Below the pieces are notes generated by a model. The model ran no database searches. It was given only the letters and a program-made list of their open reading frames with translations, and had not been told where the DNA came from. Shown in pieces: positions 45,463 to 62,988 of a DNA stretch of 64,000 nucleotides (position 1 is its first letter; the number at the start of each line of letters is the position of its first letter). The translations under genes were made by a program, and so were the position numbers. The stretch is from the NCBI GenBank assembly GCA_963744145.1, contig CAVUSO010000001.1:5952001-6016000 (forward strand), given 5' to 3'. This DNA is from an uncultured cyanobacterium (GTDB lineage: Bacteria; Cyanobacteriota; Cyanobacteriia; Cyanobacteriales; CAWUOF01).

Positions 45463-45856
45463 ATTTTCCTTCCTGAGGAGTTACTGCGATTGTCCCAGTT
45501 TTAGGGACAATTTCAAATATAACAGGAAAGCGATAATTTATATTTCAAATATACTATAGGTAAATATAACTAATTTTTATCAATCGGTATTTTGGTGATT
45601 TAGGTCACAGAAAGGGGCTAAAAACAACGAAAAACTGATATTCTCTAGCTAGGGATCAGAAAAGTAGACGTAAGAGCAACCGCAAATTATGGGAAAAAAG
45701 ATGTCACAAAAACAATATAATTGCAGGTTACGTTTTCGTAACAAACCATTATTTATTAATGAACAGCTTTTTTCTAACTACCAAAAAGTTCCAGTGTCAA
45801 GTTAAAATCTAAAAGCTATGGCCGTTTTACTCTAAACATATTAATTTGTAACGATT

Positions 45857-47635: not shown

Positions 47636-47717
47636 ATTTGGTCTACTGGAAAATTTAAGCGATCGCCAAAAAATAATAAGTTAAGCCATAATAAGAATAA
47701 ATTCTAAATCTGTCACA

Positions 47718-48737
47718 ATGCGAACCATACTATTATACTTAAGCTTATTTGGGATCATATTTTCCCCATCTTTGGGACTAGCTCAGTCACTTCCTACTTC
47801 CCAAACCCCCAAATATGGACATGATGCTCCACCTCAAAACAGTCCTCTACCCCAGGAAAGCGTCCCAGAAGTAAATGATTATCGGATTACAGCTTTACAG
47901 AAAGATTTTTTAGGAAATCTTTGGGTAGGTTCTTGGCAAGGATTAGCGCAAATTAACCCAAATACTGGTAACATCATCAAAAGAATTACCCTTCCTAATA
48001 CTACGATCGGAGCATTAACCCAAGATAAATCTGGGAGAATTTGGGTAGGAACTTTTGAGGGTTTATTACGAGTTGATCCCCGAGTTAATAAGGTGACAGC
48101 CCAAAATATTAACTTACCTTCAGAACGGATTTTGTCACTTTTAATTGATCAACGTGGTTATTTGTGGGTAGGGGGAGATCGGGGGTTAGCTTTAGTTAGT
48201 CCAGATCAAGGTTTAACGATGACTACGGTCAAAAAATTACCTGGTGTCAGTGCTAATGCTCTCACATTAGATCGTAATGGTTCTGTTTGGGTTGGTACTC
48301 TAACTGGATTAGTCAAGATTAATAGTAGTAATGCTCTAATTCTGGATCAGGTTACTAACTTATCTGGGGTGACAGTCCAAGCTTTAGTAACAAGTCCTAA
48401 AGGTACAATTTGGGTGGGAACAACTAACAGTTTGCTAGAAATTGATCCTAATTCCGGCAATGTTTTACAATCAGTAGATGAATTAGCAGGTAGTAATATT
48501 AAATCGCTCCGTTTTGATAGTGCTGATAGTCTTTGGGTAGGTACAGATAATGGTTTATTTCGGTTTTTCCCCAGTGTGAAAAAAGTAGTTGGTCAAATTC
48601 CTAATCTTCCTTCTAGTCGGGTTTTATCTTTATCTCCAGATACAGGTAATAAATTATGGGTAGGAACAACAGAAGGACTTGCTTGGGTAAGTATGACAAC
48701 TTGGAAAGCTAAGTCACTTGTACCTTTTGCTCGTTGA
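47718..48737 (+). CDS. Secreted beta-propeller protein (two-component regulator propeller repeats)
   Basis: Signal peptide; seven D..G.LWVGT..GL repeats. Confidence 0.85.
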   Translation: MRTILLYLSLFGIIFSPSLGLAQSLPTSQTPKYGHDAPPQNSPLPQESVPEVNDYRITALQKDFLGNLWVGSWQGLAQINPNTGNIIKRITLPNTTIGALTQDKSGRIWVGTFEGLLRVDPRVNKVTAQNINLPSERILSLLIDQRGYLWVGGDRGLALVSPDQGLTMTTVKKLPGVSANALTLDRNGSVWVGTLTGLVKINSSNALILDQVTNLSGVTVQALVTSPKGTIWVGTTNSLLEIDPNSGNVLQSVDELAGSNIKSLRFDSADSLWVGTDNGLFRFFPSVKKVVGQIPNLPSSRVLSLSPDTGNKLWVGTTEGLAWVSMTTWKAKSLVPFAR

Positions 48738-48796
48738 TCAGCATCGATCGGTTAAAATACAGCGTATTTGTGAATAACTAAGTTTTTGTTAAATTT

Positions 48797-49423
48797 ATGA
48801 AAATTGCAATCATTTCTGATATTCATGGAAATTGGTCTGGGTTGAGTACGGTGTTAGATGATATTAAATTACGTCAAATCGAGCAAATTATTTGTTTAGG
48901 TGATGTAGTTGATGGGGGAGATGAAAATGATACAGTTGTGGATTGGTTGAAAGCAAATAATATCTCTACTGTCCAAGGAAATCACGATCAGAGTTATGAT
49001 TGTCGTCTGTCACCAGAGAATAGAGATTGGTTAAGTCATCTTCCTCGAATAATTGTGAAAAATGATGTTTGCTTTACTCATATTTCTCCAAGAGTTAAGC
49101 AAACAAAAGTTACTAATAATATCGAAGCTTGGAATATATTTGATGAGACTGATTACCGATTATGTTTTATTGGACATATTCATTTTCCAGCTCTATTTGG
49201 AGCTGAAAATGAAGAATTTGGAGAATCCCGTTCCTACGAAGTTGATCAAGGTTATTACCATCTAAATTCAGCCGATCGCTATATCATTTCCTTTGGAGCG
49301 ATCGGCTATCCTCGTGGAGGTGGAAAATTTATTCGCTACGGGATTTTTGATTCTAATCAGAACAGTGTCGAATTTATTAAATTACAGGGAACACTTTTGC
49401 CTTATGGCTTATGTTCTTATTGA
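48797..49423 (+). CDS. Calcineurin-like metallophosphoesterase
   Basis: SDIHGN, LGDVV, GNHD, GHIH. Confidence 0.9.
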   Translation: MKIAIISDIHGNWSGLSTVLDDIKLRQIEQIICLGDVVDGGDENDTVVDWLKANNISTVQGNHDQSYDCRLSPENRDWLSHLPRIIVKNDVCFTHISPRVKQTKVTNNIEAWNIFDETDYRLCFIGHIHFPALFGAENEEFGESRSYEVDQGYYHLNSADRYIISFGAIGYPRGGGKFIRYGIFDSNQNSVEFIKLQGTLLPYGLCSY

Positions 49424-49442
49424 AAATATTAATTCTGGTAAA

Positions 49443-50603
49443 TTAGTATTCTTGCTCCCAATGATCAGAAAACCCATACTCTTCCAGCTTGCTATTGCGT
49501 CGAATATCACAAGTTGCACAGTGGAAAGAGCCACCAAAGCTATAAAAGTGTCGGAAATCAACCGGAATAACCTGAAATCCTAACTTTTGCAAAAGCTTCT
49601 GAGTTGCTTCTTCCTGTCTTTCGACAATAATCCGTTCTGGATCTAAACTGAGAATATTCATGCTCACCCACTTACTCGCGATCGGAAGGTGCCAATAGTC
49701 TGGAGTAGCTGGAGGTGCTGTCTCAATCAAATCCCAACCAGCTTTCTTAAACAGTTCACTATGTTCAGGAGGACGGATCGGATTAATCAAAGCTAATCCC
49801 GGTTTAAGTGGTACTAAGGAAGCGTCTATGTGCATCGGGTTGAAATCTTTGAACTTGATGATATGTACTCGGTACTGTTTACCTAAGTGCTGTCTCAACC
49901 AGGTGATCCCCATCATATTAGTGACATGACTACGCTGGACAAAAATATCACGCCCAAAACGGACCAGATCAGCCGCATCAAAACAGGGTTCAAACTCAGT
50001 AGTTACATACTTACCTTTGCTCACTAATAATTCTTGCTCTTCTGGAGACATGGCGGCAAACTCAAAATCGTAGAGTTCGTCAGACATCAAAGGTTTCGGT
50101 GCAGTTGTCCATCTAGCTCCTGTTAAAAGATACTCCTTCATTAAAGAACGGTAAGCTCGGTATTCAAAAAATCGCGATCGCCATGCCATTGGTGCTTCAA
50201 TAATTTCATTTCCAATCACAATTAACAGATCGCGGGGCATAGCTGCGTACATTCCTGTAGCAGCAAAATCTGGAGTTTGATAAGTTTGAGAAAAGTCGAT
50301 TAGAGCTGGTCGTCGAACCGTAACTCCTTCTTCTGCTAAGATATGGCAAAACTCATCTAATTCCCGTGACGCTGCTTTTACCAGTTCTTCAGGAAAAGGA
50401 CGCCCACCTTGCTTTTGAAAAAACTCCCAGTATTTAGAAGGGGCATCTACCTTAACATTGGCTTCAAAATGAGGTATAGTAGCGCCTTCAACGTGACCAA
50501 CAATTACTTCTTGGAGAGTATCCCATTCGTTATAACTGTTGACGATCGGCAGTTTCTGGGTGAAACCTGTTACTTTAATTTCGGCAGAATAATTTGTTGG
50601 CAA
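49443..50603 (-). CDS. Amidinotransferase, glycine amidinotransferase (AGAT)-like; start uncertain
   Basis: NSYNEWD.L, MPRD, APMAWRSRFFEY, FDAAD, NPMHID, GGSFHC (Asp-His-Cys triad). Confidence 0.92.
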   Translation of the reverse strand: MPTNYSAEIKVTGFTQKLPIVNSYNEWDTLQEVIVGHVEGATIPHFEANVKVDAPSKYWEFFQKQGGRPFPEELVKAASRELDEFCHILAEEGVTVRRPALIDFSQTYQTPDFAATGMYAAMPRDLLIVIGNEIIEAPMAWRSRFFEYRAYRSLMKEYLLTGARWTTAPKPLMSDELYDFEFAAMSPEEQELLVSKGKYVTTEFEPCFDAADLVRFGRDIFVQRSHVTNMMGITWLRQHLGKQYRVHIIKFKDFNPMHIDASLVPLKPGLALINPIRPPEHSELFKKAGWDLIETAPPATPDYWHLPIASKWVSMNILSLDPERIIVERQEEATQKLLQKLGFQVIPVDFRHFYSFGGSFHCATCDIRRNSKLEEYGFSDHWEQEY

Positions 50604-51019
50604 ATTAATATTCCCGACAAATCCATTATTAGTAGTTATACAATACTCCGGACACTTTGCTGAGAGAAAATGGTTTATAGGTATAATTGACCAACCAATG
50701 ATTTTTGGCTAATAGTCAAAAATCAGACTTGAGCCACTGAGATCACCAAAAAAATATCGATCGTGAGAGAATAAACCCATGTAAATTCGACCCGACCGAT
50801 AATCATGAATTTTCTAGAAAACATCTTAACTCGACTCGCCGGGATTAGTAAAGCCCAAACCAAATTTTTCTGTAGGGCAAACTTCGACTACGCGAGCAGG
50901 TAAACGAGCGGGTAAACTCAGGGTAATCGTTTCAGCAATTATTTACTTGCCGAAACGCTCCCATCTCCTACATTTAACTGAACTGTATTGATCTATATTA
51001 TCTATAAAACTATCTTTGT

Positions 51020-52390
51020 CTAATTAGGGTTTACTCCTGATGCGCTATCAACAGCCATTGTTCTCCGCTCAATCATTTCTAATAACAAGTATCTGCTTAG
51101 ATATGATTTAATCTTAGGTTGGATAACCAGCTCTAGAAAACTTGATAATGATATTGTGATCATAATCCAAATTAATAAACCTAGTAAAAAACTCAAACCT
51201 GTTCCCTGCCAAGGCAAGTATTTATTCATTAGGATCGCGATCGGCATATGTAATAGATAGAAAGCATAAGAGATCCGACCCATAAAAGTCATTTTTTTTA
51301 AGCTGTTAACTGATGTATCATATTTAACCAATATAATTGCAAGTATAGTGGCCAAAGATGCTACTACCAATTGTGGACTTTGAAAAACATATCCCTTCCA
51401 AATTATCCAAACCAGGTAAAAGATAGGCAGCAAGAAACAGAGTAAACGCCAATAAATAAAACCATAAAAATAGCGACCTGTGATTTCACAGATTATTAAT
51501 ATACAGATTGGTAGAATTGTGAGGTCAGCCAGACTGACCATACCAGAAAAAACTGGATAGTTTAAAATCAATTTACATGTGAAAAAATGATTGGTAGCAT
51601 GAAATAATAAAATATAGCTAATCAGAGGAAAAAAGGATTTTTTCTGACTAGAAGGTGGTACTTTCCATGATAATAATAATCCACTCAACCAAAAAATCCA
51701 TCCGGACGCATAACTAGAAATAAATTGTGGAAATGACGGCAGAAACCAGCCAATAACACTGATGAGAAGAGTACCTAAAAATAAATCTAAGATTTTAGGT
51801 CGCAACCACCAGACTAAAATAAAGACAAAGTAATATAGAATTTCGTAATTTAAACTCCATACAGCTACATTACTTGCTAAAGGAGGTAGGGAAAAAGAAA
51901 AGTATTTATCAAAATTTTGTAAGAAAAATAAATTTCCTAAAACTAGGTTTAATTTTTCATTCGGTTTAGCTAATACTGCCAAACAAATAGCAATGAAATA
52001 AATTGGTAAAATTCTCATGGCACGGCGTAATATATAATTATGAACCTGCTGAATTGAGAACTCTTTTGTGGTCGTTAAGCCAATGACATAGCCGGAGAGA
52101 ACAAAGAATAGTAAAACCGCACTATGTGCTGCTGGTAAGTAGCCAAAATAAATATTGGGATGGTAGGTAGGGTCTAAAAAATTTTTGAGAAATAAAACAT
52201 GAAATAATGCCACTGATAATGCAGCAAGTCCTCTAATACCCTCTAAGTTAAAGTCATAGCTTGAATTTTTTTCTAAGGAGCAATCACTTCTATTATTAGG
52301 TTCTATTTTTGCATTAATTTTCAGATTTTGCAACCAAGTTTTAAACGTTTTCATGAATTGAGCCAGGATTGAGAACAATGTATTTATCAA
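51020..52390 (-). CDS. Acyltransferase-3 family membrane protein
   Basis: LEGIRGLAA, FFVLSG, RRAMRI.P, WSL.YE..YY, SYAFYL.H. Confidence 0.9.
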   Translation of the reverse strand: MINTLFSILAQFMKTFKTWLQNLKINAKIEPNNRSDCSLEKNSSYDFNLEGIRGLAALSVALFHVLFLKNFLDPTYHPNIYFGYLPAAHSAVLLFFVLSGYVIGLTTTKEFSIQQVHNYILRRAMRILPIYFIAICLAVLAKPNEKLNLVLGNLFFLQNFDKYFSFSLPPLASNVAVWSLNYEILYYFVFILVWWLRPKILDLFLGTLLISVIGWFLPSFPQFISSYASGWIFWLSGLLLSWKVPPSSQKKSFFPLISYILLFHATNHFFTCKLILNYPVFSGMVSLADLTILPICILIICEITGRYFYGFIYWRLLCFLLPIFYLVWIIWKGYVFQSPQLVVASLATILAIILVKYDTSVNSLKKMTFMGRISYAFYLLHMPIAILMNKYLPWQGTGLSFLLGLLIWIMITISLSSFLELVIQPKIKSYLSRYLLLEMIERRTMAVDSASGVNPN

Positions 52391-52579
52391 TGGGGCGATC
52401 GCCTAAGATTCAGCAAAAACTATAACAGCATCAAGTACCAAGGCATAAACTGCAACATTGCGAGGATAATCAAGGTGTGATATGATGTCAAGGGCTGAGT
52501 CCTAATTCATCAAATCTAGTCTCAGCTTTTTTTTCGGCTTTGTCTAGTCTGTGAAACTAATTTTAAATAAGGAGGTAGG

Positions 52580-53497
52580 ATGAATAACCTAAATATAGAA
52601 AATATTTATGCCTCGCGCGTCAATTCAAAATTTACCATTATCGATCGCCAAGAGCCAATTATCTACAGCAATAATCTACCACCTGCATCGTTAAAGCCGG
52701 AACAAGTCCAGTTCTACTCTGACAACGGATTCCTTTTGATGGAAGGTTTTTTTAGTTCTCAAGAGGTAGAGATTTTCCGTCGAGAAGTGGAGCAACTAGC
52801 TACTTGTGAGGAAATCAAAAAGGCAGGAATAAGATTTACTGAAGGTGAAAGCGATATCCTGCGGTCTATCTATTGGATCCACGAACTTAGTCACCTATTC
52901 AAGCAGTTATCCCTAGATAAACGTATCCTTGATATTGTCTACTATTTTCTCAATGATCGGGTGTATATTCATCAGTCACGTATCAATTTCAAGCCAGCTT
53001 TTTCAGGTGGAAATTTCTACTGGCATTCGGATTTTGAAACCTGGCATGTCGAGGATGGAATGCCAAAAATGCGTGCAGTGAGTGCGATGATTACACTGAC
53101 CGAAAATACAGAACTTAATGCTCCATTAATGGTAATTCCCGGTTCTCACAAAAAGTACATCAGCTGTGTGGGAGCCACACCAGCAGAATACTATAAAGAG
53201 TCGTTGAAGTCGATGAAACGAGAAGATTATGGTGTTCCCGACCAAGCTAGTATCACACAACTGGCTGAAGAAAATGGTATTGTAGCCATAAAAGCAGCCG
53301 CAGGTTCCCTCATCTTTTTCGATTGCAACATTCTACATGGGTCAAATAACAACATCTCCCCCTATCCGCGTACTAATCTTTTCTTTATCTATAATAGTCT
53401 GGAGAACGCGTTGCAAAAACCATTTGGGGGACTCAAACCAAGACCTGAATTTCTCGCCACAAGAGAAAACATTAAACCTCTAAATAATTTAACTTGA
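52580..53497 (+). CDS. Fe(II)/2-oxoglutarate dioxygenase with full ectoine hydroxylase (EctD) signature
   Basis: FYWHSDFETWHVEDGMP, FDCN.LHGS..N.SP.PR; AGGAGG RBS; no ectABC in window. Confidence 0.88.
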   Translation: MNNLNIENIYASRVNSKFTIIDRQEPIIYSNNLPPASLKPEQVQFYSDNGFLLMEGFFSSQEVEIFRREVEQLATCEEIKKAGIRFTEGESDILRSIYWIHELSHLFKQLSLDKRILDIVYYFLNDRVYIHQSRINFKPAFSGGNFYWHSDFETWHVEDGMPKMRAVSAMITLTENTELNAPLMVIPGSHKKYISCVGATPAEYYKESLKSMKREDYGVPDQASITQLAEENGIVAIKAAAGSLIFFDCNILHGSNNNISPYPRTNLFFIYNSLENALQKPFGGLKPRPEFLATRENIKPLNNLT

Positions 53498-53800
53498 TGA
53501 TATCCTTGGAGCCATAACAATTTACTTGTCAAAATCTCGCATAATGGTTAAGCTTTGATCCATTGTATAAGCTAACCAAAACTTAACCATTAAGCTAGTA
53601 TTCAAAAAACTTCGGTGACGCGAATGTTCAATTTGACAGATATTTTTGTAGGGGCGTATTGCTATACGCTCATACTTGATCGTTTACTGATTCAATCAAT
53701 GCTCTTTTTCTGAGAGGTTTGAGGATAAATCTGTCAAAACCAACTTGATCAGCATGGAAAAAAGCCACAATTAATTTTTTATTAAAAAAGGAGGGTAATT

Positions 53801-54820
53801 GTGATCTTAGCTCAAGCAGAAACTGTGGGAATTTCCGCAATTGGTTACTATATTCCTGAAAAAAGAATGACTTGTGAAGATATTGCCAAGTTAGCCAATA
53901 TACCTGTTTCTATGATAATCGAAGAGGTGGGGGTAGAAAAAAAACCAATTGCTGCTGAAAATGAGCATCCCAGTGATATGGGGGTCAAAGCAGCACAGGA
54001 TGCGATCAAAAAAGCGGGAATTAAACCAGAAGAAATCGATCTAATTGCCTATTGTGGTGCAGGAGACTATGATTATAGACATTGGTCACCCTCTGCTAAA
54101 ATTCAGAATGAAATTGGTGCCAAAAATGCTGTCCATGCTTTTGAAATCAGAAATGGTTGCCAAAGTGGGATATTAGGTATTTATATTTGTCAGAATCTAT
54201 TACTAGCAGATCCTGAAATAAATTGCGCTCTAGTCATTTGTAGTGATAAATTTTCCCATAACATGATTGATTATTCTGATCTAGAATTTTTAGATCAGTT
54301 TCGCTGTGCTGATGGGGCTATAGCAGTTATCCTAAAAAAAGGAGAAGGAAATAATAGAATTCTTGGTTACTCTGCGATCGTTCAGGGAGAATATGCTGAT
54401 GGACAGTGTATCCAGTTAGGAGGAACTAAGTTTAATTGGAAAGATTACAACAACAAAAGTGGTTACCTAAAACAACTGGTCAAAACAGATGAAATAAAAA
54501 CTGGGATAATTTTTTTACTAAATTACATTAAGGTAATTCAAAAAGTTCTTGAGAAAAGTAAATATACAAAAGCAGATATTGATTGGTTATTTACTAATCA
54601 AATTTCTGTCAATTTATCTCAGCAAATAATAAGTGCGATGGGATTAAAGATTGAACAAACAATGTTGTCTATGAGAGAATACGGTCATTTAGGAGCAGGA
54701 GATCCCTTGTTTGGCTTGGTAAAAATGATCGAGGTTAATCAAATAAAACCAGGAAATTTGGTGGTATTAGCTAGTAGTGGTAATAGAGTATCCTGGGGAG
54801 CAATGACAATTAAATTTTAA
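53801..54820 (+). CDS. KAS III-fold enzyme, probable ACP-dependent acyltransferase
   Basis: Catalytic Cys NGCQSG; TNQIS replaces HQAN; YGHLGAGD replaces YGNTS. Confidence 0.8.
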   Translation: MILAQAETVGISAIGYYIPEKRMTCEDIAKLANIPVSMIIEEVGVEKKPIAAENEHPSDMGVKAAQDAIKKAGIKPEEIDLIAYCGAGDYDYRHWSPSAKIQNEIGAKNAVHAFEIRNGCQSGILGIYICQNLLLADPEINCALVICSDKFSHNMIDYSDLEFLDQFRCADGAIAVILKKGEGNNRILGYSAIVQGEYADGQCIQLGGTKFNWKDYNNKSGYLKQLVKTDEIKTGIIFLLNYIKVIQKVLEKSKYTKADIDWLFTNQISVNLSQQIISAMGLKIEQTMLSMREYGHLGAGDPLFGLVKMIEVNQIKPGNLVVLASSGNRVSWGAMTIKF

Positions 54821-54857
54821 TTTTTGACTTGTAATAGATTGATTCTAGAGGAACAAT

Positions 54858-55106
54858 ATGACAGAAATAAAAGCCCAAATTCGCCAAATAGTGATTGAAA
54901 TACTGCCCCAAGTTAAAGATGCAGAAAATCTAGATGAACTAGATATTTTTAGTCAAGGATTAACTTCGATCAATGCGATGAGCTTGGTGGTAAAATTGCA
55001 AAATTTATTTGGGATTCAATTTGATGCCAATGAAATTAATATAGAAGACTTTAAAACTATAGTCAATATGGTAAATTTGGTTGAGCAAAAACAAAAGATT
55101 AGGTAA
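54858..55106 (+). CDS. Acyl carrier protein
   Basis: 82 aa, acidic, DIFSQGLTSI phosphopantetheine Ser, FGIQF. Confidence 0.88.
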   Translation: MTEIKAQIRQIVIEILPQVKDAENLDELDIFSQGLTSINAMSLVVKLQNLFGIQFDANEINIEDFKTIVNMVNLVEQKQKIR

Positions 55107-55151
55107 TTACAAATAAATCGAGGAAAAAAATTAGATATTGGGGAAATTATT

Positions 55152-56678
55152 GTGCTGAATCAAATGTTAAAAAAGACCGTAGCTCGGTTTCCCGAAAAAA
55201 TTGCGTTGGTTTGTGGGGAGTTAAGGATAACTTATGGAGAGCTTGACAATCAAGTTGAAAGATTTAGTCAGGGTTTGACTGAAATAGGAGTTAAGCACTC
55301 TGATTGTGTGGCTTTAATTCTACCCAACTGCCCAGAGTTCGTGATTAGTTTCTATGGGATTGCCAGAATAGGTGCGATCGCCCTGTTCCTTAATCCCTCC
55401 TGCAAAGAAAATGAACTCGAAAATTACATCTGCGATAGTAACCCGATCGCGATCATTACTGATATTACTAGAGCTGCCATTTGCAGTCATTTAATTTCTC
55501 AACTCGATCGCCAAGTTCATTTAATTGTAGTAGGGGGAGAGCATCCATTAGGTCATACCTTTAATGATCTGCTTGTCCGGGAAGTAGAAATATTTGAGCA
55601 ACCGCAGTTCCATGAAGGTGATGTTCTCTACCAATACTCATCAGGATCGACTGGAAAACCCAAAAGAGTCTGTCGTACTCAAAAAAACATCTTCCATGAA
55701 GCAAATAACTGTTTCCTGACCCAAAAAATTACTGAATTTGACAATATTTTTTGCCTTGTACCCTTTTATCATGCTTACGGATTTGGACAATGCCTACTAG
55801 CAGCCACTTATTCAGGAGCAACTTTGGTAATTTTAGAACCATGTTGGCAAAATGGCAAGATCATAGAGCAACCATTTATTTTTAGACAAGCTCGGGTATT
55901 GGAGGTGATCGCGCAAGAGAAAATTACAATTTTGCCTGCTATTCCTTATATCTATAGTGTTTTAGCAGCAATCCCTGCAAGTACACCAACAGACTTATCG
56001 ACCTTAAGATTATGTATTTCAGCTGGTAATTTTCTGCCCAAAGATATTTTCGATCGATTCTATACCCGATTTGGAATTACGATCCGACAGCTTTATGGCT
56101 GTACCGAAGCTGGTGCTGTTGCCATTAATATGCAGAATGGAGCTAATATTAAATACGATTCCATTGGTTTGCCGATGAAAAACGTAGAAATCAAGATCAT
56201 GGATGAAGCCGAACAGGAGTTACCAACAGGAACAGTAGGAGAAATAGCGCTCAAAAGTCAAACCCTGACCCTTAGTTATGATCATCATCCCGATGCTAGC
56301 CAAGCAGCATTCAAAAATGGCTACTTTTTGACAGGCGATTTAGGTAAAAAAGATGAAGATGGTTATCTCTACATTACAGGTCGCAAAAAGTTTTTAATTG
56401 ATACAGGAGGATATAAAGTCAATCCCTTAGAAGTAGAAACTGTTTTAATAGAGCATCCCAAAATTAGTGAAGTGGTTGTGGTCGGAGTTGCTACTCCTCA
56501 TACAGGACAATTGGTAAAAGCGGTTATTGTTGCTAAAGGAGATTGCCGAGAACAAGATATTTTTGACTACTGTCAGGATAAGTTAGCAGAGTTCAAAGTT
56601 CCTAAGATAGTTGAATTTCGTCAGGAAATTCCTAAGAGCCCGATGGGAAAGATTTTGAGAGAAAAGCTGTCTAGTTAA
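55152..56678 (+). CDS. Adenylate-forming acyl-CoA/acyl-ACP ligase
   Basis: YSSGSTGKPK, YGCTEAG, TGD, GRKK, PKSPMGK. Confidence 0.92.
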   Translation: MLNQMLKKTVARFPEKIALVCGELRITYGELDNQVERFSQGLTEIGVKHSDCVALILPNCPEFVISFYGIARIGAIALFLNPSCKENELENYICDSNPIAIITDITRAAICSHLISQLDRQVHLIVVGGEHPLGHTFNDLLVREVEIFEQPQFHEGDVLYQYSSGSTGKPKRVCRTQKNIFHEANNCFLTQKITEFDNIFCLVPFYHAYGFGQCLLAATYSGATLVILEPCWQNGKIIEQPFIFRQARVLEVIAQEKITILPAIPYIYSVLAAIPASTPTDLSTLRLCISAGNFLPKDIFDRFYTRFGITIRQLYGCTEAGAVAINMQNGANIKYDSIGLPMKNVEIKIMDEAEQELPTGTVGEIALKSQTLTLSYDHHPDASQAAFKNGYFLTGDLGKKDEDGYLYITGRKKFLIDTGGYKVNPLEVETVLIEHPKISEVVVVGVATPHTGQLVKAVIVAKGDCREQDIFDYCQDKLAEFKVPKIVEFRQEIPKSPMGKILREKLSS

Positions 56679-56680
56679 AT

Positions 56681-58231
56681 CTAACGAACAAGTCCTTCCA
56701 GCAACTCAATCACCGCTGCAACTGCTGTATACATTGCACCCTGAATCGAAGCATGATTAATAGCCAAATGTTCTCCAGCAAAAAAAACACGAGGCTTTTC
56801 TAGAGGATAAGACTGACATAGCAGACTTTGATAGCGCTCTTGTTCTCCAGGTGCAAAAAAAGCATAAGCTCCTGAACCTACTTGAGTTTTTTCATCCCAA
56901 ATACAATGAATCACGTCATCAACATAACGATCAATTTGGGAATGTAGTTGTTTAACCTCAGCTAAAGTCAAGTCAGTTCGTTTACCCTCTTCAAGAGATA
57001 GAAAATGCCGTACATTACTATCCCAACGGTAAGCAGCAGTAAAAGCTGTTGGTTGATGGGAAATTTCCGGATCTTGCGCTACCCAGCACAACTTTTCTGT
57101 CTGGGAGTCTGCTAAAATAGCATTATCCGAAGGATACCAGCATTTTTCCATTGGCAAATCCGTAAAACTGCCCCCACCATAAATATGATCGTAAAGTTCC
57201 CAAGGACGAGCAGTACAGTGAAAGATTGTTTTAGCTGCATTGCTGTAACCCAGACCACAAATAGCCTGTATTTTATTTGCTGGGAGAGGAGGATAGAACT
57301 CTATTCTTGCTAGAGCAGTAGCGGGAACTGTACAAATCACATAGTCAAATTCTTGCTCTTTCTTGCTACCCAAATTATCCCAACCAACTCGAACTCCTTG
57401 GTCGGTCATCTGCAATAGATTTACCTTAGCATTACGCTCAATTTTTCCTGGTAAACGTTCTACAAAAGCTTTTACCAAGGTTTCCATACCACCAACAAGC
57501 TGATATTGTTCAGCCTGATACCAAGCAAAGAAATCAATTAATCCACTCCAGACAGAAATTTCGTCATAATAAATCATTCCCGTCGCACGACCTACCAGTT
57601 CAAAAGCATCAGGAGAAAGGCGATCGCGAAAATATTGGCTAAAAGTTAGCCTATTATATTCCTTTAATTTACCACTGGTAAAAGTTGGCGAAAATATTTC
57701 CCACTTTTCTCGATCAGAAAGACAATCTAATAATTCCTTTAAAATATTTTCATACAAAACTCGAGGATCAATAGATTCGGCTGGGTCGAGATGGTAAACT
57801 GAAAAAAGTTTTTGAAACTGATTAAGACGAGCTTTTTGACCGCGCAAATAATAAAAAGCATTGGGATTGTAATTGACAAAACTACCCTTGGATAAATTAA
57901 ATTTTTCCACATAATGTAGCACACAGCTATGATTGATCGGAATACGCATCGCTCCGAGTTCCCCATAGCTTCCATCAGAAAAATAATGGGTATAAATGCG
58001 CCCTCCCAAACGATGAGAAGCTTCTAAAATGGTTACCTCATAACTCAGTTGACTTAATTCATAAGCCGCAGTCAGCCCAGCAATACCACCCCCAATAATA
58101 CCAACTTGCAAGCGATCGCCACCAGGGTCTTTTGCCTTGAGAGAATTTGGGTGTTGATAGAGTTCAGCAAAGGAAAAAGGGTGATCGGGCTTTTGGGTAT
58201 GACGATAGATATGAAAATTTGATGAGGACAT
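56681..58231 (-). CDS. Flavin monoamine oxidase / L-amino acid oxidase family (ORF track start 58294; likely start 58231)
   Basis: GGGIAGL, EAS.RLGGR, ELGAMRIP, FAGEH, IQGA. Confidence 0.88.
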   Translation of the reverse strand: MSSSNFHIYRHTQKPDHPFSFAELYQHPNSLKAKDPGGDRLQVGIIGGGIAGLTAAYELSQLSYEVTILEASHRLGGRIYTHYFSDGSYGELGAMRIPINHSCVLHYVEKFNLSKGSFVNYNPNAFYYLRGQKARLNQFQKLFSVYHLDPAESIDPRVLYENILKELLDCLSDREKWEIFSPTFTSGKLKEYNRLTFSQYFRDRLSPDAFELVGRATGMIYYDEISVWSGLIDFFAWYQAEQYQLVGGMETLVKAFVERLPGKIERNAKVNLLQMTDQGVRVGWDNLGSKKEQEFDYVICTVPATALARIEFYPPLPANKIQAICGLGYSNAAKTIFHCTARPWELYDHIYGGGSFTDLPMEKCWYPSDNAILADSQTEKLCWVAQDPEISHQPTAFTAAYRWDSNVRHFLSLEEGKRTDLTLAEVKQLHSQIDRYVDDVIHCIWDEKTQVGSGAYAFFAPGEQERYQSLLCQSYPLEKPRVFFAGEHLAINHASIQGAMYTAVAAVIELLEGLVR

Positions 58232-58239
58232 TGAGAAAA

Positions 58240-59196
58240 ATGAAAATCCTTTTATGTACGAAGCGTGATTCTTTTCTAGTAGATTTACTAGCATCCCAAT
58301 TATCAGATTGTCAAATTATAGCTTGCTCTACTGACACCGCGATCGAGCATTTAGATGGTGTGGATGTAATCATTCCATACTTTGCTACTATTGATGCCTT
58401 AATGATTAATTCTGGAAAATTCGGGTTAATTCAGCAGTTTGGTGTAGGTTTAGATGCTGTAAATATTGAAGCTGCTACCCATGCAGGGGTATGGGTAGCA
58501 AGAGTACCGGGAAAGATTTCTGGCAATGCCGATTCCGTTGCTGAATACGCCATCATGCTAATGTTAATGCTATCACGACCAATAACCATAGTGAGGCCAA
58601 GATTAAACTCTAATAAATGGAGTCAACAAAAAAGCATTGCCTTATTTAAAAAAACAGCCTGCATTGTGGGACTCGGTGATATTGGTACAGCACTAGCAGT
58701 ACGTCTAAAAGCTTTTGGAATGCGTCTAGTTGCTGTTCGACAACACTCCGAACGCGGAGCATCTCCAGAAACAGGAATAGAACGAGTTTATGGAGCTGAT
58801 GCTCTGACCGAAGCTTTATCAGATGCTGACTATGTAATCTTGTGTGCTTACTATCAAAAAAATAATCATCATTTGATTAATAGTGTCACCCTGGCAGCCA
58901 TGAAACCAGGAGCATTTCTGATCAACGTGGCTCGTGGTGGTTTAGTAGATACAGATGCTTTGTCAGCGGCACTAGCAAGGGGTCATTTGGCAGGTGCAGG
59001 TCTTGATCTAGTTGACTCTCCCACAGATGCTCTTTTCCAACACAACGTCATTGTTACTCCTCATATTGCTGGTGTTACTGACTTGGCTGACCAAGGAATA
59101 ACGGCTGTGGTAGTTGATAACATTAAACGCTATATCCGAGGAGAACAGCCATTGTATGCAGTTAACGCACCTGATCATCTGCGACGCTTGTTATGA
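58240..59196 (+). CDS. D-isomer-specific 2-hydroxyacid dehydrogenase (ORF track start 58147; likely start 58240)
   Basis: SVAE, GLGDIG, INVARG, GLD, TPHIAG. Confidence 0.9.
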   Translation: MKILLCTKRDSFLVDLLASQLSDCQIIACSTDTAIEHLDGVDVIIPYFATIDALMINSGKFGLIQQFGVGLDAVNIEAATHAGVWVARVPGKISGNADSVAEYAIMLMLMLSRPITIVRPRLNSNKWSQQKSIALFKKTACIVGLGDIGTALAVRLKAFGMRLVAVRQHSERGASPETGIERVYGADALTEALSDADYVILCAYYQKNNHHLINSVTLAAMKPGAFLINVARGGLVDTDALSAALARGHLAGAGLDLVDSPTDALFQHNVIVTPHIAGVTDLADQGITAVVVDNIKRYIRGEQPLYAVNAPDHLRRLL

Positions 59197-59268
59197 TTAT
59201 TTAGCAAGGTTTTGGACTTGCTTGAGCTCGTCCCAGTTTCTTCCACCTTTTTTTTCAGAGCAATACCG

Positions 59269-60222
59269 ATGAACGATCTAGTAGACAAGTCTCAAAACTC
59301 CTGGCTTACCCTAACAACAATAAAAGCGATCGCTGCTTTAGCGATTACACAGCTAGCGATCGGTTCAGTGCCAGTTCTCATTAGATTATCAGAAGATGAA
59401 ATTAGCCCAAATGCGACTATTTTTAACCGACTACTGATTGGGACAGCCTTGTTAGCGCTGTGGAATGTTTTATTTAAGATCGGTCGTAAATTTTTAGGCA
59501 ATCAGCCCATAGAAGCAACCCAACAATCATACTCAAAGGAGGTAATATGGCTATTACTAGCACTAGGATTTTGTATTGCGGGCTATCAAATAGTTTGGGC
59601 TTGGTCTCTCACTCAGACCAGTATTGCTAATTCAGCATTGATGCACAGTTTACTTCCTTTGTTCACTGCTTCAATTGGTATCCTTTTCTTCAGTCAGCAA
59701 TTAGATCGCCCCTTAGCCCTGGGCACAACAATTGCGATCGCTGGAGCTTTCGGTGTCGCACTCAACGATCTGCAAATTGACCCTGACAAACTCCTAGGTG
59801 ATGCGATTGCGTTAATGTCAGCTTTACTAACTGCCTTATGTCTGTTAATTGCAGAACAACTGCAAAAAAAATTAAACACGACCACAATAGTGAGCTGGTC
59901 TTGTGCAATTGGAACTATATTAAATCTACCTCTTGTTATCCTAATTGGAGATGAAATCTTTCCTTCTTCTTGGAGTGGATGGAGCGAAGTAATTGGTTTA
60001 GCTTTAACCCTTGTAATCAGTCAAGGATTAGTCATCTATAGCTTAAAAAGATTATCGCCAAGTTTTGTTGCTGTAGCCTTTCTGTTCGATCCAGCTATTG
60101 CTGCTATCCTTGGCTGGACAATTTTTTCAGAAAGTTTAAATTCCTATAATCTCTTAGGTTTTATTATCGTGTTGTTAGGGATGTATATAACCACCTTAAG
60201 CAAATATGCACTTAAGGTTTAA
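59269..60222 (+). CDS. DMT/EamA family transporter (ORF track start 59212)
   Basis: About ten TM segments with EamA duplication, GD..AL, P...A..G...F.E. Confidence 0.88.
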   Translation: MNDLVDKSQNSWLTLTTIKAIAALAITQLAIGSVPVLIRLSEDEISPNATIFNRLLIGTALLALWNVLFKIGRKFLGNQPIEATQQSYSKEVIWLLLALGFCIAGYQIVWAWSLTQTSIANSALMHSLLPLFTASIGILFFSQQLDRPLALGTTIAIAGAFGVALNDLQIDPDKLLGDAIALMSALLTALCLLIAEQLQKKLNTTTIVSWSCAIGTILNLPLVILIGDEIFPSSWSGWSEVIGLALTLVISQGLVIYSLKRLSPSFVAVAFLFDPAIAAILGWTIFSESLNSYNLLGFIIVLLGMYITTLSKYALKV

Positions 60223-60268
60223 TCGCTTTCCCAATCCTCTTATTCAAGTAGAATTCCCTTGAGTATAC

Positions 60269-61333
60269 TCAAGGGTTGCCATCCATACAGCTAACATATT
60301 TCAAGACATATCCAATTACCAAATTTGTCGGATCGACTTGGAAATCAACAGATTCTTTTTTAATAATTTCAAATCCAGCGCTAGTAAAAATTTCAGTCCA
60401 TTTCTGATCAGTAGCTAGTTTTTGGTTGGTGAATGAATGGAGTAAGAAATAAGGGTTATAAAATCCTAGCCCTACTGGAGATTTCATCACTTCTTCATTA
60501 TCAATTGCATAATCAACCTCAATTACATGAAGATAGCTGTGGGGAAACTTTTTGCCAATATTGCGAATAAATTCAATCAAAATATCTTCTCCTGCTTGAC
60601 CATATATTTCTTGGAGAACAAACCAAAATAAAATAAAGTCAGGAATCTCATTCATTTCATAATCAAGAGCAGCACTATTCACTAAAATTATCCGATCTTG
60701 CATTTTCTTTTCGATCACCAAATTGAGTCCAGCTTGATATGCTCCCTCATCAGGCTCAATACCAATTGCTTTAATATTTGGATTTTGGTGACAAAATTCA
60801 CATAATCCCAAGGCACTACCACAACCATAATCAATGATCAAACTGGTGGTAGGTTTGATTTCCGCCATCATTTTTTTAGCCAAAGGAAAGACATCATTTT
60901 GAGAAATTTGGCAAGCACCAATTCCGACCCATTTACCATTTCTTGATACATAGTTTGTGCCATGTTTTAAAATATTAGAAATATTAGAAAATATCGGTGA
61001 ATAACCTCCGACCAACAGATGAAAAAATCCCTGATAGTAAATACTAATTTGGTCACCATAATGAGAAATACGAAAACTGATTTGGTCATTTTCTAAGGTA
61101 CTTTTCTCTAAAATTCCTTCTAGTGCTAGATATTCAAACAAGGCTCGCAATAGGTTAGGGTCAAATCCTTTTTCTTCTGCAATAGTCTTGATATCTAATC
61201 CATCTTTCAACATGGAAAAAATTCCTTCTTTGAGCAGATCGTAAATTACTTGACTAGCTACAAAACCTCTGAGATAGCCAAGAGATTTCTCTAAACCAGG
61301 AAGGAAATCATTACTAATTATCATCTTAGACAT
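60269..61333 (-). CDS. SAM-dependent methyltransferase, 2-ketoarginine methyltransferase (MrsA)-like
   Basis: LVGGY, VGIGACQIS, DYGCG, FVLQEI.GQAG, IEVD, YNPYFLLH.FTNQ, VD.T.L.IGY match my recollection of Pseudomonas syringae MrsA along its length. Confidence 0.75.
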   Translation of the reverse strand: MSKMIISNDFLPGLEKSLGYLRGFVASQVIYDLLKEGIFSMLKDGLDIKTIAEEKGFDPNLLRALFEYLALEGILEKSTLENDQISFRISHYGDQISIYYQGFFHLLVGGYSPIFSNISNILKHGTNYVSRNGKWVGIGACQISQNDVFPLAKKMMAEIKPTTSLIIDYGCGSALGLCEFCHQNPNIKAIGIEPDEGAYQAGLNLVIEKKMQDRIILVNSAALDYEMNEIPDFILFWFVLQEIYGQAGEDILIEFIRNIGKKFPHSYLHVIEVDYAIDNEEVMKSPVGLGFYNPYFLLHSFTNQKLATDQKWTEIFTSAGFEIIKKESVDFQVDPTNLVIGYVLKYVSCMDGNP

Positions 61334-61335
61334 TA

Positions 61336-62124
61336 TTATTTTTCCTTAGATTCAGGATATTGTCCGGTTCTAACTTCGAGCGCAAATTGGGCGATCGCTT
61401 GCTCAATTATTTCTCGTAAATTAGCATAAGCTTTAGCAAAGGGAGGTAGATGATCCGAAAACCCTAATAAATCGTGGGTAACTAGGATTTGACCATCGCA
61501 ATGGGGTCCAGCACCGATTCCGATCGTCGGGATCGTTAATTTTTGGGTAATTTCTAATCCTAATTCATCCGGAATATGTTCTAAAACGAGCGCAAAAGCA
61601 CCTGCTTGTTCTAAAGCGATCGCTTCGGTTAAAATTCGTTCTCCAGCTTCTTTAGTTTTTCCTTGTTGACGATAACCGAGTTTATGGACAGATTGGGGAG
61701 TTAATCCCAGATGTCCTAACACAGGTATCCCAACTTCTACTAGCTGATTGACCGTTTCGGCGATCGCGGGATATCCACCTTCTAATTTTACTGCTTGTGC
61801 GCCAGTTTCTTTTAATACTCGACCGGCGGAATGTTTAGCTTGTTCAATACTTTCTTGATAGGTTAAAAACGGTAAATCTACTACTAATAATGCCTGATTG
61901 ACTCCCCGTCGAACTGCTTTAGCATGGTGGAGCATCTCTTCGAGAGTTAAGGGTAAGGTAGTTTTCATCCCTAACGCTACCATCGCGAGAGAATCTCCAA
62001 CTAAAATCAAGTCAACACCTGCTCGATCTAATAATTGCGCGATCGCATAATCCCAAGCAGTTAGTGCTACAATCGAGCGTCCTTGCTGTTTCCATTGAAT
62101 AAGTTGCTGGGTGGTGATAGTCAT
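61336..62124 (-). CDS. panB: 3-methyl-2-oxobutanoate hydroxymethyltransferase
   Basis: [33 protein letters not shown]. Confidence 0.97.
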
Positions 62125-62784
62125 TAGCTATTGCACTATGTGATACTCTATTGGCCCTGGTCTGATTGGGAATTACTAAGGGCGAATCTAACCCCTGGCA
62201 AAATTATCTTAGAAAAATTTACTCATCAACGCTTCACCAATCAAGGGTCATAATATAATTATAGAAAATAAAAAGCTTACATAAAAAATCAGAGCTATGT
62301 AGCTCTGACTTTTCCAGAAATTTGGATTAATTGAATAATTGCTAAAAGTGGCCAACGAGCAGCCTGCCCGATTAGCTAAAAATAGCTTAACTACAGCTAA
62401 CTAAATTGGTTGAGTAGCCTAAAAACGTAGTAAAGCGGAGCTAAACAGCGTAATTAGTTCATTTTCCGAGACTCCTCTGTAGTCGCTTCCCTCAGCCAAT
62501 TGGATGCTAGATCCGACCAATGAGAGCGTAGTTCAGTAGGAATCTATTAGGCAGTCTACCCTAGCCTAGTACAATCAAAGTGGCGTGGTTAGCCGTTCTA
62601 GTTTGATTAGCACACCTTGAGTATTACTACTCTAGGCTTTGAAAAGCTTTTTCATTAGTCGGTCAACTTCCTACAAGCCAATAGAGAGCGAATCTTACTA
62701 TCTGCCGTCTGACCGAAAGGTAATTGCAGATCTCTATATTAGTAAGTTTTACTGCTTTTTGCTACCTTTTACTACGATTTTTCG

Positions 62785-62988
62785 CTATCTGTTGATATGA
62801 CGAGAAACAAGTTTTTCACAATGAGCTTGTGTTTGGTGTAACAATTGCTCACGACTATCTGCTGTCTTAGTCAGTGTAGGAACCAAGTTGCGAGCTTGTA
62901 GAGCCATGTGAAGCTGTAAATGGGCCACATACTCACTAATATCTTCACGCAATGGACAAGATGGATATTGATTTGAACGGGACTTCAA
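62785..62988 (-). CDS. Small hypothetical protein (cyanobacterial type)
   Basis: 67 aa, YVAHLQLHMALQARNLVP; AGGAG RBS ahead of TTG start. Confidence 0.65.
   Translation of the reverse strand: MKSRSNQYPSCPLREDISEYVAHLQLHMALQARNLVPTLTKTADSREQLLHQTQAHCEKLVSRHINR

Follow-up and report, generated by a model that had tools for sequence, protein, structure and literature searches.

A possible lineage-specific gene island for making a small guanidino compound in a soil cyanobacterium

Among the described systems closest to this locus is the mrsABC pathway to 3-methylarginine in Pseudomonas syringae pv. syringae, reportedly described by Braun et al. 2010 (cited in PMC10502145), in which MrsA has the aminotransferase MrsB as its partner. 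ChlB3 and CerJ are KAS III-like acyltransferases of natural-product pathways. In the cylindrospermopsin (CyrA/CyrB) and saxitoxin (SxtG) pathways, as a review describes them, an AGAT-family amidinotransferase supplies the guanidino unit and, as in the island, an adenylating enzyme is accompanied by a carrier protein (PMC12371840). AmtA, an arginine:lysine amidinotransferase, makes homoarginine for phaseolotoxin, according to an excerpt of another (PMC4887976).

We analysed a window of 64,000 nucleotides from the 7.7 Mb genome of a soil cyanobacterium. Pfam, NCBIfam and PDB searches, together with a whole-genome copy count, show that ten intact, single-copy open reading frames occupy window positions 49443-61333. 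Tentatively, and with somewhat less than even confidence, we read them as a mosaic biosynthetic island, specific to its lineage, whose product would be a small guanidino metabolite. The genes, their flanks and one repeat are:

48797-49423: metallophosphoesterase (flank)
49443..50603, minus strand: AGAT-type L-arginine amidinotransferase, AmT (PDB human AGAT 1jdx, E 1.3e-143; SxtG, 4e-101)
51020..52390, minus strand: acyltransferase-3, AT3, a polytopic membrane acyltransferase (PF01757, 56 bits, cut-off 31)
52580..53497, plus strand: EctD-type Fe(II)/2-oxoglutarate hydroxylase (TIGR02408, 345.3 bits, cut-off 336.5)
53536..53598, no strand: inverted repeat just 3' of the hydroxylase stop (arms of 22 nt, 86% complementary, 19 nt apart)
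53801..54820, plus strand: KAS III-like thiolase-fold enzyme with Cys120-Asn266-His296 (PF08541/PF08545)
54858..55106, plus strand: stand-alone acyl/aryl carrier protein, ACP, with Ser37 in GLTSI (PF00550)
55152..56678, plus strand: adenylate-forming acid ligase, AMP-binding (PF00501 and PF13193)
56681..58294, minus strand: FAD L-amino-acid oxidase, LAAO (PF01593, 189 bits)
58147..59196, plus strand: D-isomer-specific 2-hydroxyacid dehydrogenase (PF02826 and PF00389; top PDB matches glyoxylate reductases, 8.5e-36)
59212..60222, plus strand: EamA/DMT transporter, a putative exporter (PF00892, two stretches)
60269..61333, minus strand: MrsA-clade SAM-dependent 2-oxo-acid C-methyltransferase, MT (PDB MrsA 8r4z, E 1.1e-65)
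61336..62124, minus strand: panB, a housekeeping flank outside the island count (TIGR00222, 361.7 bits, cut-off 207.55)

The ten accessory genes that the initial annotation had placed between the phosphoesterase and panB are all there, and each of its gene identifications was upheld by the Pfam, NCBIfam and PDB searches. Reading frames are unbroken and catalytic motifs preserved across the island genes, and the Pfam search of 49443-61333 shows a block unbroken by genes with unrelated functions. The ten proteins contain no NRPS or PKS domain, as had been claimed, and no aminotransferase domain (Pfam). panB, after which MT starts at a distance of 2 bp, is single-copy in its own genome and belongs to the core, being present in 26 of 26 relatives, own genome included. 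Two divergent gene pairs and intergenic gaps of 2-46 bp fit co-regulation of the island. AT3 and AmT share a strand, with AT3 the upstream gene and 416 bp between the two. The base composition of the island is ordinary, and no island-marking flanking repeats or tRNA were found around the block.

MT belongs to the same clade as the mrsABC methyltransferase, matches MrsA over its full length and likewise has a guanidino 2-oxo acid as its likely substrate; an exporter is present in the island too. Among PDB entries MT is much nearer to MrsA (1.1e-65) than to MppJ (7.7e-5) or the SgvM-type 8ftr (1.8e-4), and it keeps all 45 invariant columns of a 21-sequence family alignment in which it is itself the reference row. 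The earlier label "MrsA-like" is sound at the level of the clade. The best NCBIfam model, that of the 2-ketoarginine methyltransferase equivalog (TIGR04543, ketoArg_3Met), gives 310.7 bits, below its cut-off of 425, which weakens the initial reading. In contrast to mrsABC, the island has no MrsB-type aminotransferase and carries LAAO and the D-2-hydroxyacid dehydrogenase in its stead; the amidinotransferase, hydroxylase, ligase, ACP, KAS-like enzyme and AT3 are further additions. The lack of an aminotransferase, already remarked in the initial annotation, extends from the island to the whole genome, with no remnant at the locus; the best match there to the aminotransferase of the Fischerella locus described below reaches 25-27% identity. 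At other MT loci a class I/II aminotransferase stands directly upstream of MT in 43 of 47 cases (within 600 bp, same strand) and within 852 bp in three more. The one other locus without it, archaeal L005, has a DAO-type oxidase nearby.

AmT and MT bracket the island, with all other genes between them. A single other locus was found to carry both: in a Fischerella MAG (L008, JANZYY010000011.1), copies 77.6% (AmT) and 77.1% (MT) identical to those of the window lie in a tight operon in the order SMR, AmT, aminotransferase, MT, PLP decarboxylase, second MT. This recurrence at about 77% identity within one operon ties the genes at the island's two ends together in function. The Fischerella operon differs in keeping the aminotransferase and in adding the decarboxylase, the second methyltransferase and the SMR pump; the window's other eight genes are absent from its 19 kb, and its genome has no EctD homologue.

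AmT is nearer to vertebrate AGAT than to SxtG. All of D254, N300, M302, H303, D305 and C407 of 1jdw are kept in its alignment (N255, M257, H258, D260 and C362 in window numbering). It also retains the flap residues of glycine-type AGAT, so its product may be guanidinoacetate instead of homoarginine. For homoarginine, the product we favour, AmtA offers a functional precedent (PMC4887976). Close AmT homologues (65-77%) are also found elsewhere, in small clusters that bring together EamA exporters, hydroxylases of the PhyH or TauD type, oxidases and aminotransferases. The cylindrospermopsin and saxitoxin pathways, as given in PMC12371840, differ from the island, which is free of PKS and NRPS, and offer no equivalent of its MrsA-type methylation, its LAAO or its dehydrogenase.

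Starting from the observed gene identities, intact motifs, AmT-MT linkage and missing aminotransferase, we propose the following pathway. AmT would transfer the amidino group of arginine to another amino acid, most simply to lysine, which would yield homoarginine; arginine itself is an alternative starting point. LAAO would turn the guanidino amino acid into its 2-oxo acid, replacing an MrsB-type aminotransferase, MT would methylate this at C3, and the dehydrogenase would reduce the methylated 2-oxo acid to a 3-methyl-2-hydroxy guanidino acid; we favour reduction to the hydroxy acid because a dedicated transaminase to regenerate the amino acid is absent. The ligase would put a carboxylic acid on the free-standing ACP, either an aryl acid, as its relatives suggest, or the hydroxy acid itself, and the KAS III-like enzyme would couple the acyl group, through an ester or amide bond, to the guanidino hydroxy acid. 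The EctD-type hydroxylase and AT3 would tailor the product and the EamA transporter would export it. Judged from sequence, the locus is plausibly an orphan, mosaic island for a beta-methylated guanidino 2-oxo or 2-hydroxy acid derivative, and a methylated arginine-like small molecule is probably built and exported by an unusual route.

The replacement of the aminotransferase by LAAO and a D-2-hydroxyacid dehydrogenase is compatible with the order oxidase, methylase, reductase. LAAO finds its top PDB matches exclusively among L-amino-acid oxidases (1.8e-45 at best), with monoamine oxidases following at about 1e-14, and the motifs GGGIAG and GAMRIP are seen. Two of its three cyanobacterial homologues adjoin Orn/Lys/Arg-type decarboxylases, and cyanobacterial LAAOs of the AoxA type yield 2-ketoarginine (PMC2242806); both points speak for the proposed pathway. 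The dehydrogenase retains Arg263 and His306, and a gap falls at the usual position of the catalytic Glu, in the stretch LDLVDSP. The route put forward initially has a coherent gene set (LAAO and dehydrogenase present, no aminotransferase, a parallel in L005); the unaligned catalytic Glu counts against the pathway. Since the longest LAAO and dehydrogenase frames overlap head-to-head by 148 nt, their true starts are probably internal: perhaps Met22 at 58231 for LAAO, and probably 58222 or 58240 for the dehydrogenase. The EamA transporter has a 45% paralogue in its own genome and a 45% homologue in another (G040), where it lies 1.4 kb from a 69% LAAO homologue.

An arginine oxidase could instead open a catabolic, nitrogen-scavenging route through 2-ketoarginine, with the amidinotransferase and a keto-acid reductase taking part and the neighbours incidental. 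Proposals for arginine breakdown in cyanobacteria include L-arginine oxidase/dehydrogenase and amidinotransferase routes, and AoxA yields 2-ketoarginine (PMC2242806). Such a route has no role for a C-methyltransferase, carrier protein, ligase, KAS-like enzyme or exporter, no guanidinobutyrase-type gene was found in the island by Pfam, and the clades of LAAO and AmT, seen in just 3 and 12 of 400 other genomes, sit in clusters of tailoring enzymes. We consider catabolism improbable.

The acyl-handling genes have relatives of several kinds. The ligase is most similar in the PDB to anthranilate-CoA ligase (4wv3, 4.6e-65) and to oxalate-, FadD13- and 4-coumarate-type ligases. It forms a conserved cassette with the ACP: in four of four ligase homologues (52-56%; G095, G110, G236 and G234) an ACP homologue (44-50%) lies directly 3', in identical order. 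These are aryl-acid loading cassettes, in cyanobacterial clusters with DAHP synthase, chorismate lyase or an FkbO fusion, NRPS C-PCP-TE and halogenase. Chorismate-using enzymes, NRPS and halogenase are all missing from the island, where the KAS III-like enzyme takes the place of the condensation domain; no aryl-acid-forming gene was found in the island or nearby. Because the nearest cassettes belong to chorismate-derived aryl-acid/NRPS clusters, the acyl unit may not be a guanidino acid.

The KAS III-like enzyme has the thiolase fold and active-site Cys of ChlB3 (7eqi) and CerJ (3s3l), with the FabH triad altered; it resembles acyltransferases of this type and adjoins the carrier protein and ligase, but the similarity is distant (1.3e-20 and 2.3e-10). 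It scores below cut-off for PRK06840 (254 bits, cut-off 315) and fabH TIGR00747 (139, cut-off 292). Its Cys-Asn-His subfamily is separate and mostly from Nostocales, and in three of three members the His/Asn order is reversed relative to two housekeeping FabH proteins. As the FabH His/Asn arrangement for decarboxylative condensation is absent, the enzyme is probably an acyltransferase. Its homologues (52-55%) stand isolated among unrelated genes.

D-alanylation likewise combines an adenylating enzyme with a small carrier protein and a polytopic acyltransferase of the membrane (DltA, DltC and DltB). By analogy, the ligase would load the guanidino hydroxy acid on the ACP, and AT3 would hand it on to a polymer of the cell envelope, which would gain positive charge. 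The carrier has weak matches to DltC (E 4e-7) and an ornithine-lipid ACP (1.3e-8), both far under NCBIfam cut-offs, and AT3 has no NCBIfam match. We regard surface decoration as highly improbable: the EamA exporter suggests a soluble product, glycosyltransferase or polymer genes are not adjacent, AT3 accompanies AmT, ligase or KAS homologues in none of the loci examined, and AT3 proteins are not known to use carrier-protein donors.

Judged by its matches to PDB EctD, the hydroxylase comes close to a canonical ectoine hydroxylase (4mhr, E 6.4e-89; 3emr, 9.8e-86). It keeps the FYWHSDFETWHVEDGMP stretch, the iron ligands and the equivalents of SaEctD Gln127, Trp150 and Arg280, which we take to be ligand-binding positions. 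Unlike EctD genes of ectABC, it has guanidino and acyl-carrier genes as neighbours. It passes the equivalog cut-off and a 57% cyanobacterial homologue adjoins ectC, so it may be unrelated to guanidino chemistry. EctC was not found in the genome with PF06339, a search that matched no control genome either. A near-canonical EctD with no ectC found, which has an amidinotransferase to one side and an oxidase/reductase pair to the other, could instead act on an ectoine-like cyclic guanidine: an omega-guanidino 2-oxo acid would cyclise, be reduced to a 2-amino-tetrahydropyrimidine or related ring carboxylate and then be hydroxylated. We give this solute only a very slight chance; it is purely chemical speculation, the ectC search found its target in no control, no diaminobutyrate-forming gene lies in the island, and KAS, ACP, ligase and AT3 are left unexplained.

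The island genes are accessory and rare in the phylum. In counts that include the window's own genome, MT was found in 3 of 61 relatives (one a 59-residue match at chance level), KAS in 3 of 401 genomes, EctD in 7 of 401 (just one other above 50% identity), LAAO in 4 of 401 (three of the 400 others, at 57-69%), AmT in 13 of 401 and the ligase in 5 of 271. The full set, whose co-occurrence elsewhere the initial annotation had named as a check, was found in no other genome searched, and more than AmT and MT occurred together in 0 of 46 MT loci (185,579 species, each represented by a single genome). Recurring combinations were pairs only: AmT with MT, ligase with ACP and, weakly, LAAO with EamA. 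The initial interpretation is sustained in the AmT-MT link, the gene identities and the absent aminotransferase, but not in a recurring ten-gene unit.

Recurrence limited to pairs would also be expected of independent modules brought side by side, an explanation we hold unlikely, if with an appreciable chance. AmT, LAAO, MT, the dehydrogenase and EamA would produce a beta-methyl guanidino acid and export it in free form, as the hydroxy acid or, after re-amination by a general transaminase, as the amino acid; an unrelated acyl or aryl transfer would be the task of KAS-ACP-ligase, perhaps together with AT3; and an orphan EctD would act on imported ectoine. The aryl-acid/NRPS relatives of the ligase-ACP pair, the usually stand-alone KAS subfamily, the canonical features of EctD and the spread of GC per gene from 0.305 to 0.425 agree with this, as does the hairpin between EctD and KAS, a possible terminator or attenuator dividing the hydroxylase from KAS-ACP-ligase. 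Against it stand the missing ectC, as far as that search goes, the lack of a nearby aryl-acid-forming gene and of unrelated genes within the block, and two features of layout that favour a single island: AT3-AmT and EctD-KAS-ACP-ligase diverge from a common 189 bp promoter region, and AmT and MT, operon partners in Fischerella, enclose all the other genes.

The ten gene families that the initial annotation had named between a phosphoesterase and panB were all recovered by the ORF list and three libraries, and each gene is present in a single copy in its own genome (7.7 Mb, four contigs) with its catalytic motifs intact. The rbcL, rbcX, and rbcS genes at 43008-45462 of the window mark the host as a cyanobacterium. 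The island falls into five transcription units, the last of which includes panB:

48797-49423, metallophosphoesterase, left flank
49443-61333, the ten-gene island; its transcription units from left to right, with the genes of each in order of transcription, are:
minus strand, acyltransferase-3 and AGAT-like amidinotransferase
plus strand, EctD-type hydroxylase, KAS III homologue (53801-54820), acyl carrier protein (ACP), and AMP-ligase
minus strand, L-amino-acid oxidase (LAAO)
plus strand, 2-hydroxyacid dehydrogenase and EamA transporter
minus strand, panB (right flank, outside the island) and MrsA-like methyltransferase
61336-62124, minus strand, panB, right flank

Gaps between convergent or co-directional island genes measure 2-46 bp. 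There are two divergent gene pairs: the acyltransferase-3 and EctD genes are separated by a 189-bp spacer, and the dehydrogenase adjoins the LAAO and is transcribed divergently from it. The longest ORFs of this second pair share 148 nt in a head-to-head overlap, and both genes therefore probably start further in. A hairpin lies directly 3′ of the EctD stop. No NRPS or PKS domain is found in the ten genes, as the initial annotation had it, or in the examined flanks. The composition of the island is ordinary (GC 0.380 vs 0.394; tetranucleotide distance at the 59th percentile), and the island is not marked by a tRNA, a tandem repeat, or direct repeats at its flanks. An Rfam scan of 45000-64000 returned neither a credible RNA nor a guanidine riboswitch, and neither promoters (46 vs 39.2 ± 6.5 in shuffles) nor terminators (11 vs 10.5 ± 3.2) are in excess. 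No RNA dataset was listed as containing the stretch; one DNA run contains it and may come from the source sample.

The island genes are accessory. In counts that take in the window's own genome, the KAS III homologue occurs in 3 of 401 genomes, LAAO in 4, EctD in 7 (only one other above 50% identity), and the amidinotransferase in 13, while the ligase occurs in 5 of 271. The methyltransferase was matched in 3 of 61 relatives, one match being a true 39% homologue and another a 59-residue stretch at chance level; scans of metagenomes for its relatives found none. In a search for a second carrier of the island, protein matches of about 79% identity were obtained for the methyltransferase (P0002) and EctD (P0031), and the best database match to the KAS III homologue reaches only 56%, in a family mostly from Nostocales. 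A protein atlas yielded KAS III clusters of a generic kind only. panB is core, being present in 26 of 26 relatives, and single copy, and is thereby ruled out as a pathway member. The phosphoesterase is rare (2 of 26); since it is itself accessory, synteny leaves the left border undefined. The sole other genome of the same family contains neither the methyltransferase nor the phosphoesterase.

The methyltransferase has one strong structural relative in the PDB, MrsA (8r4z, E = 1.1e-65 over residues 12-345), followed distantly by MppJ (7.7e-5) and 8ftr (1.8e-4). Its score against the 2-ketoarginine methyltransferase equivalog TIGR04543 is 310.7 bits, under the cut-off of 425, a point that weakens the reading of the initial annotation. 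Argininosuccinate synthase lies 3′ of an aminotransferase-methyltransferase pair in Nannocystis (L006:8442-14526, where the synthase is fused to the lyase) and in a Pseudomonadota MAG (L007:8916-13177), which ties the family to arginine chemistry. In a further locus (L055:104-10972, G010:C363), a 38% homologue, a SET-domain gene, and an aminotransferase adjoin a 2642-residue PKS/NRPS hybrid, where they probably supply a beta-methyl amino acid to a nonribosomal peptide. MrsA itself is counted among the keto-acid C-methyltransferases, with Braun 2010 cited, in the accessible text of PMC10502145; our literature search found no publication on the MrsA structure.

Outside the window, the methyltransferase gene keeps close company with an aminotransferase. 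A class I/II aminotransferase is encoded on the same strand within 600 bp upstream in 43 of 47 other loci, which are mostly from related Solirubrobacterales and so not independent, and within 852 bp in three more. In the remaining locus, from an archaeal MAG, a DAO-type oxidase is encoded nearby. The absence of an aminotransferase from the window, noted from the outset, holds up: there is neither a gene nor a remnant, and a domain search detected no aminotransferase domain in any of the ten island genes. An aminotransferase pseudogene within the island was ruled out, as matches were at chance level only. When the aminotransferase of a related Fischerella operon (L008) was used as a query, its best match in the window's own genome was only 25-27% identical.

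This operon (L008:5510-11151, JANZYY010000011.1, from a Fischerella MAG) also bears on whether the island genes belong together. We scanned one genome per species across 185,579 species and obtained 46 methyltransferase loci, among which L008 is the only one that shares a second island gene. It is tightly packed in the order SMR pump, amidinotransferase, class I/II aminotransferase, methyltransferase, PLP decarboxylase, and second methyltransferase (Methyltransf_25), and probably makes a methylated guanidino amine. Its amidinotransferase and methyltransferase are 77.6% and 77.1% identical to those of the window, where they are the two end genes of the island, and their shared presence in so tight an operon is good evidence that the two act in one pathway. 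The remaining eight island genes are absent from L008, and an EctD homologue is absent from its whole genome.

The amidinotransferase is very close to vertebrate AGAT in a PDB search (human 1jdx, E = 1.3e-143), with SxtG matched at 4e-101. Residues D254, N300, M302, H303, D305, and C407 of 1jdw, the catalytic Cys-His-Asp and 300-flap residues of AGAT, are all identical in the alignment. Guanidinoacetate is a possible product because the N300/M302 flap is kept, and an alpha-amino-acid product can be argued from the aminotransferase, methyltransferase, and decarboxylase downstream in L008. In the cylindrospermopsin and saxitoxin clusters a PKS or PKS-like assembly enzyme adjoins the amidinotransferase, whereas the island contains no PKS or NRPS. 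Homologues of the amidinotransferase (65-77%) are accompanied elsewhere by EamA exporters, TauD/PhyH hydroxylases, a DAO oxidase, an aminotransferase, and GNAT. One such cluster (L094:4480-14967, G419:C373; amidinotransferase 65% identical) encodes a DAO oxidase, two PhyH dioxygenases, a fatty-acid-desaturase-like protein, the amidinotransferase, an aminotransferase, a GNAT protein, and a luciferase-like monooxygenase, and adjoins a glycine-betaine-type ABC transporter.

The best PDB matches of the oxidase are all LAAOs (1.8e-45 to 3.5e-40), with monoamine oxidases at about 1e-14. It carries the motifs GGGIAG and GAMRIP, the arginine of the latter presumably binding the carboxylate. AoxA-type LAAOs produce 2-ketoarginine, according to the available portion of PMC2242806. 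The dehydrogenase matches PF02826 at 146 bits and keeps Arg263 and His306; the position of the catalytic Glu falls in an alignment gap, with Asp290 and Ser291 nearby. The LAAO could stand in for the first half-reaction of the aminotransferase MrsB, and with no dedicated transaminase the dehydrogenase would be the obvious fate of the methylated keto acid. The presence of an oxidase and a reductase in place of an aminotransferase would be the strongest support for the sequence of oxidation, methylation, and reduction suggested in the initial annotation.

The acylation module fits the proposal less simply. The KAS III homologue keeps Cys120 and has Asn266 at the His position and His296 at the Asn position, a swap common to this protein and two homologues and not seen in two housekeeping FabH sequences. 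Its scores lie under the cut-offs for both TIGR00747 (138.9 vs 292.1 bits) and PRK06840 (254.2 vs 315). Replacement of Cys-His-Asn by Cys120-Asn266-His296 speaks for acyl transfer rather than FabH-type decarboxylative condensation. The swapped-triad subfamily (also L053:3588-4670 and L054:10391-11476) is widespread in Nostocales, usually as a stand-alone gene, and occurs in Moorena/Okeania, methylotroph-like gammaproteobacteria, and Methanothrix records. The ligase precedes the ACP in four of four ligase homologues (ligase 52-56%, ACP 44-50% identical). Neighbours of these relatives include DAHP synthase, a chorismate lyase or fused FkbO-type chorismatase, an NRPS C-PCP-TE, and a halogenase, and the PDB neighbours of the ligase are anthranilate-, coumarate-, and benzoate-type ligases; from these sequences, the relatives of the cassette look like aryl-acid loaders. 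A conserved cyanobacterial cluster (L100:7850-19232, L102:2221-12662, and L103:3516-12029) combines DAHP synthase, a chorismate pyruvate-lyase-like protein or a ligase fused to an FkbO-type chorismatase, ligase, ACP, NRPS C-PCP-TE, a halogenase-like protein, and FAD monooxygenases, and looks like a halogenated hydroxybenzoate-peptide pathway.

Co-occurrence in other genomes, the check proposed in the initial annotation, gives a mixed result: it extends to pairs and themes and not to the full ten-gene set. KAS III homologues (52-55%) stand alone among unrelated neighbours. LAAO homologues (57-69%) are located in other small tailoring clusters, one with an EamA gene (45%) 1.4 kb away and two adjoining Orn/Lys/Arg-type decarboxylases and methyltransferases. 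That pairs recur and the complete set never does favours the main rival explanation, in which independent modules merely lie side by side; we regard it as rather unlikely. Tentatively, the most likely reading is a single mosaic island for an exported beta-methylated guanidino 2-oxo or 2-hydroxy acid derivative acylated through a carrier-protein module. The overall interpretation stands in part, supported by the amidinotransferase-methyltransferase link and by the oxidase and reductase found where an aminotransferase is missing, and set back by the lack of full-set recurrence and the aryl-acid kin of the ligase-ACP pair.

The hydroxylase is a nearly canonical EctD by its sequence, which also weakens the proposed reading. 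It scores 345.3 bits against TIGR02408 (cut-off 336.5) and matches PDB 4mhr at 6.4e-89, with the signature stretch FYWHSDFETWHVEDGMP and the iron ligands His149, Asp151, and His253 present. Further cyanobacterial homologues, 60-66% identical, occur in Okeania, Moorena, and Kamptonema. A search for ectC (PF06339) gave no match in its own genome (96.3% complete), and likewise in 0 of 14 control genomes; the same profile does detect ectC beside a 57% identical cyanobacterial EctD homologue (G201). That ectoine locus (L070:9596-16248, G201:C5) comprises EctD adjoining EctC, ABC transporter components, a DoeB-like AstE/AspA-family protein, a glutamine-synthetase-like protein, and a DoeA-like M24/creatinase protein.

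MrsA-type pathway chemistry is known; what is new here is the oxidase/reductase substitution and its partners, and the island is no new kind of system. The literature search found no publication linking a 2-ketoarginine methyltransferase with cyanobacteria, none combining at least three of amidinotransferase, L-amino acid oxidase, acyl carrier protein, and 2-hydroxyacid dehydrogenase, and none combining ectoine hydroxylase with amidinotransferase. The accessible text of a review from 2025 on guanidine natural products in cyanobacteria (PMC12371840) mentions no amidinotransferases besides SxtG and CyrA, and the terms "methylarginine" and "hydroxy acid" do not occur in it. Amidinotransferases are present in 0.42% of cyanobacterial BGCs, as stated in the available part of a 2026 preprint (10.64898/2026.09.06.749771).

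If the island is one pathway, it would provide a transaminase-free way to beta-branched guanidino hydroxy acids and their NRPS/PKS-independent acylation, as well as a handle on the AGAT-like amidinotransferase clade scattered over small cyanobacterial clusters and on the Cys-Asn-His KAS III-like subfamily. Rule-based genome mining may miss NRPS/PKS-independent clusters of this type. If the genes are merely neighbours, the island is one more orphan accessory region. A bolder and distinctly doubtful version is that here, for the first time, an MrsA-type beta-methylation pathway would lead to a hydroxy acid instead of an amino acid, with LAAO and dehydrogenase in place of the transaminase, and that the resulting 3-methyl-2-hydroxy guanidino acid would then be esterified without NRPS/PKS by the ligase, ACP, and Cys-Asn-His KAS. 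Such a pathway would yield guanidino depsi-metabolites of a class not yet described from cyanobacteria, and it would give a first function to the widespread, mostly Nostocales KAS III-like subfamily. 3-Methylarginine is an arginine antimetabolite. Braun et al. 2010 call it a toxin in their title, as given in the reference list of PMC10502145, which makes allelopathic activity conceivable for a related compound that is exported.

Several other features lie around the island. Past panB, about 1.6 kb (62125-63700) contains no ORF longer than 70 aa and no Rfam match or tandem repeat. Directly to the left of the island, 45857-48737 encodes a Ser/Thr kinase with a 4-Cys prefix domain and then a Reg_prop beta-propeller protein, and a regulatory tie between this pair and the island is possible. 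Just upstream of rbcLXS lies a mobile-element patch (34729-42668) with XisH, a DDE_Tnp_4 transposase, an IS200-type Y1 transposase, a TnpB/Cas12f-like protein, and a further DDE transposase. At 29637-31987, an EgtD-like histidine methyltransferase (PF10017) is followed by an FGE-sulfatase-domain protein, a pair that looks like ergothioneine egtD-egtB.
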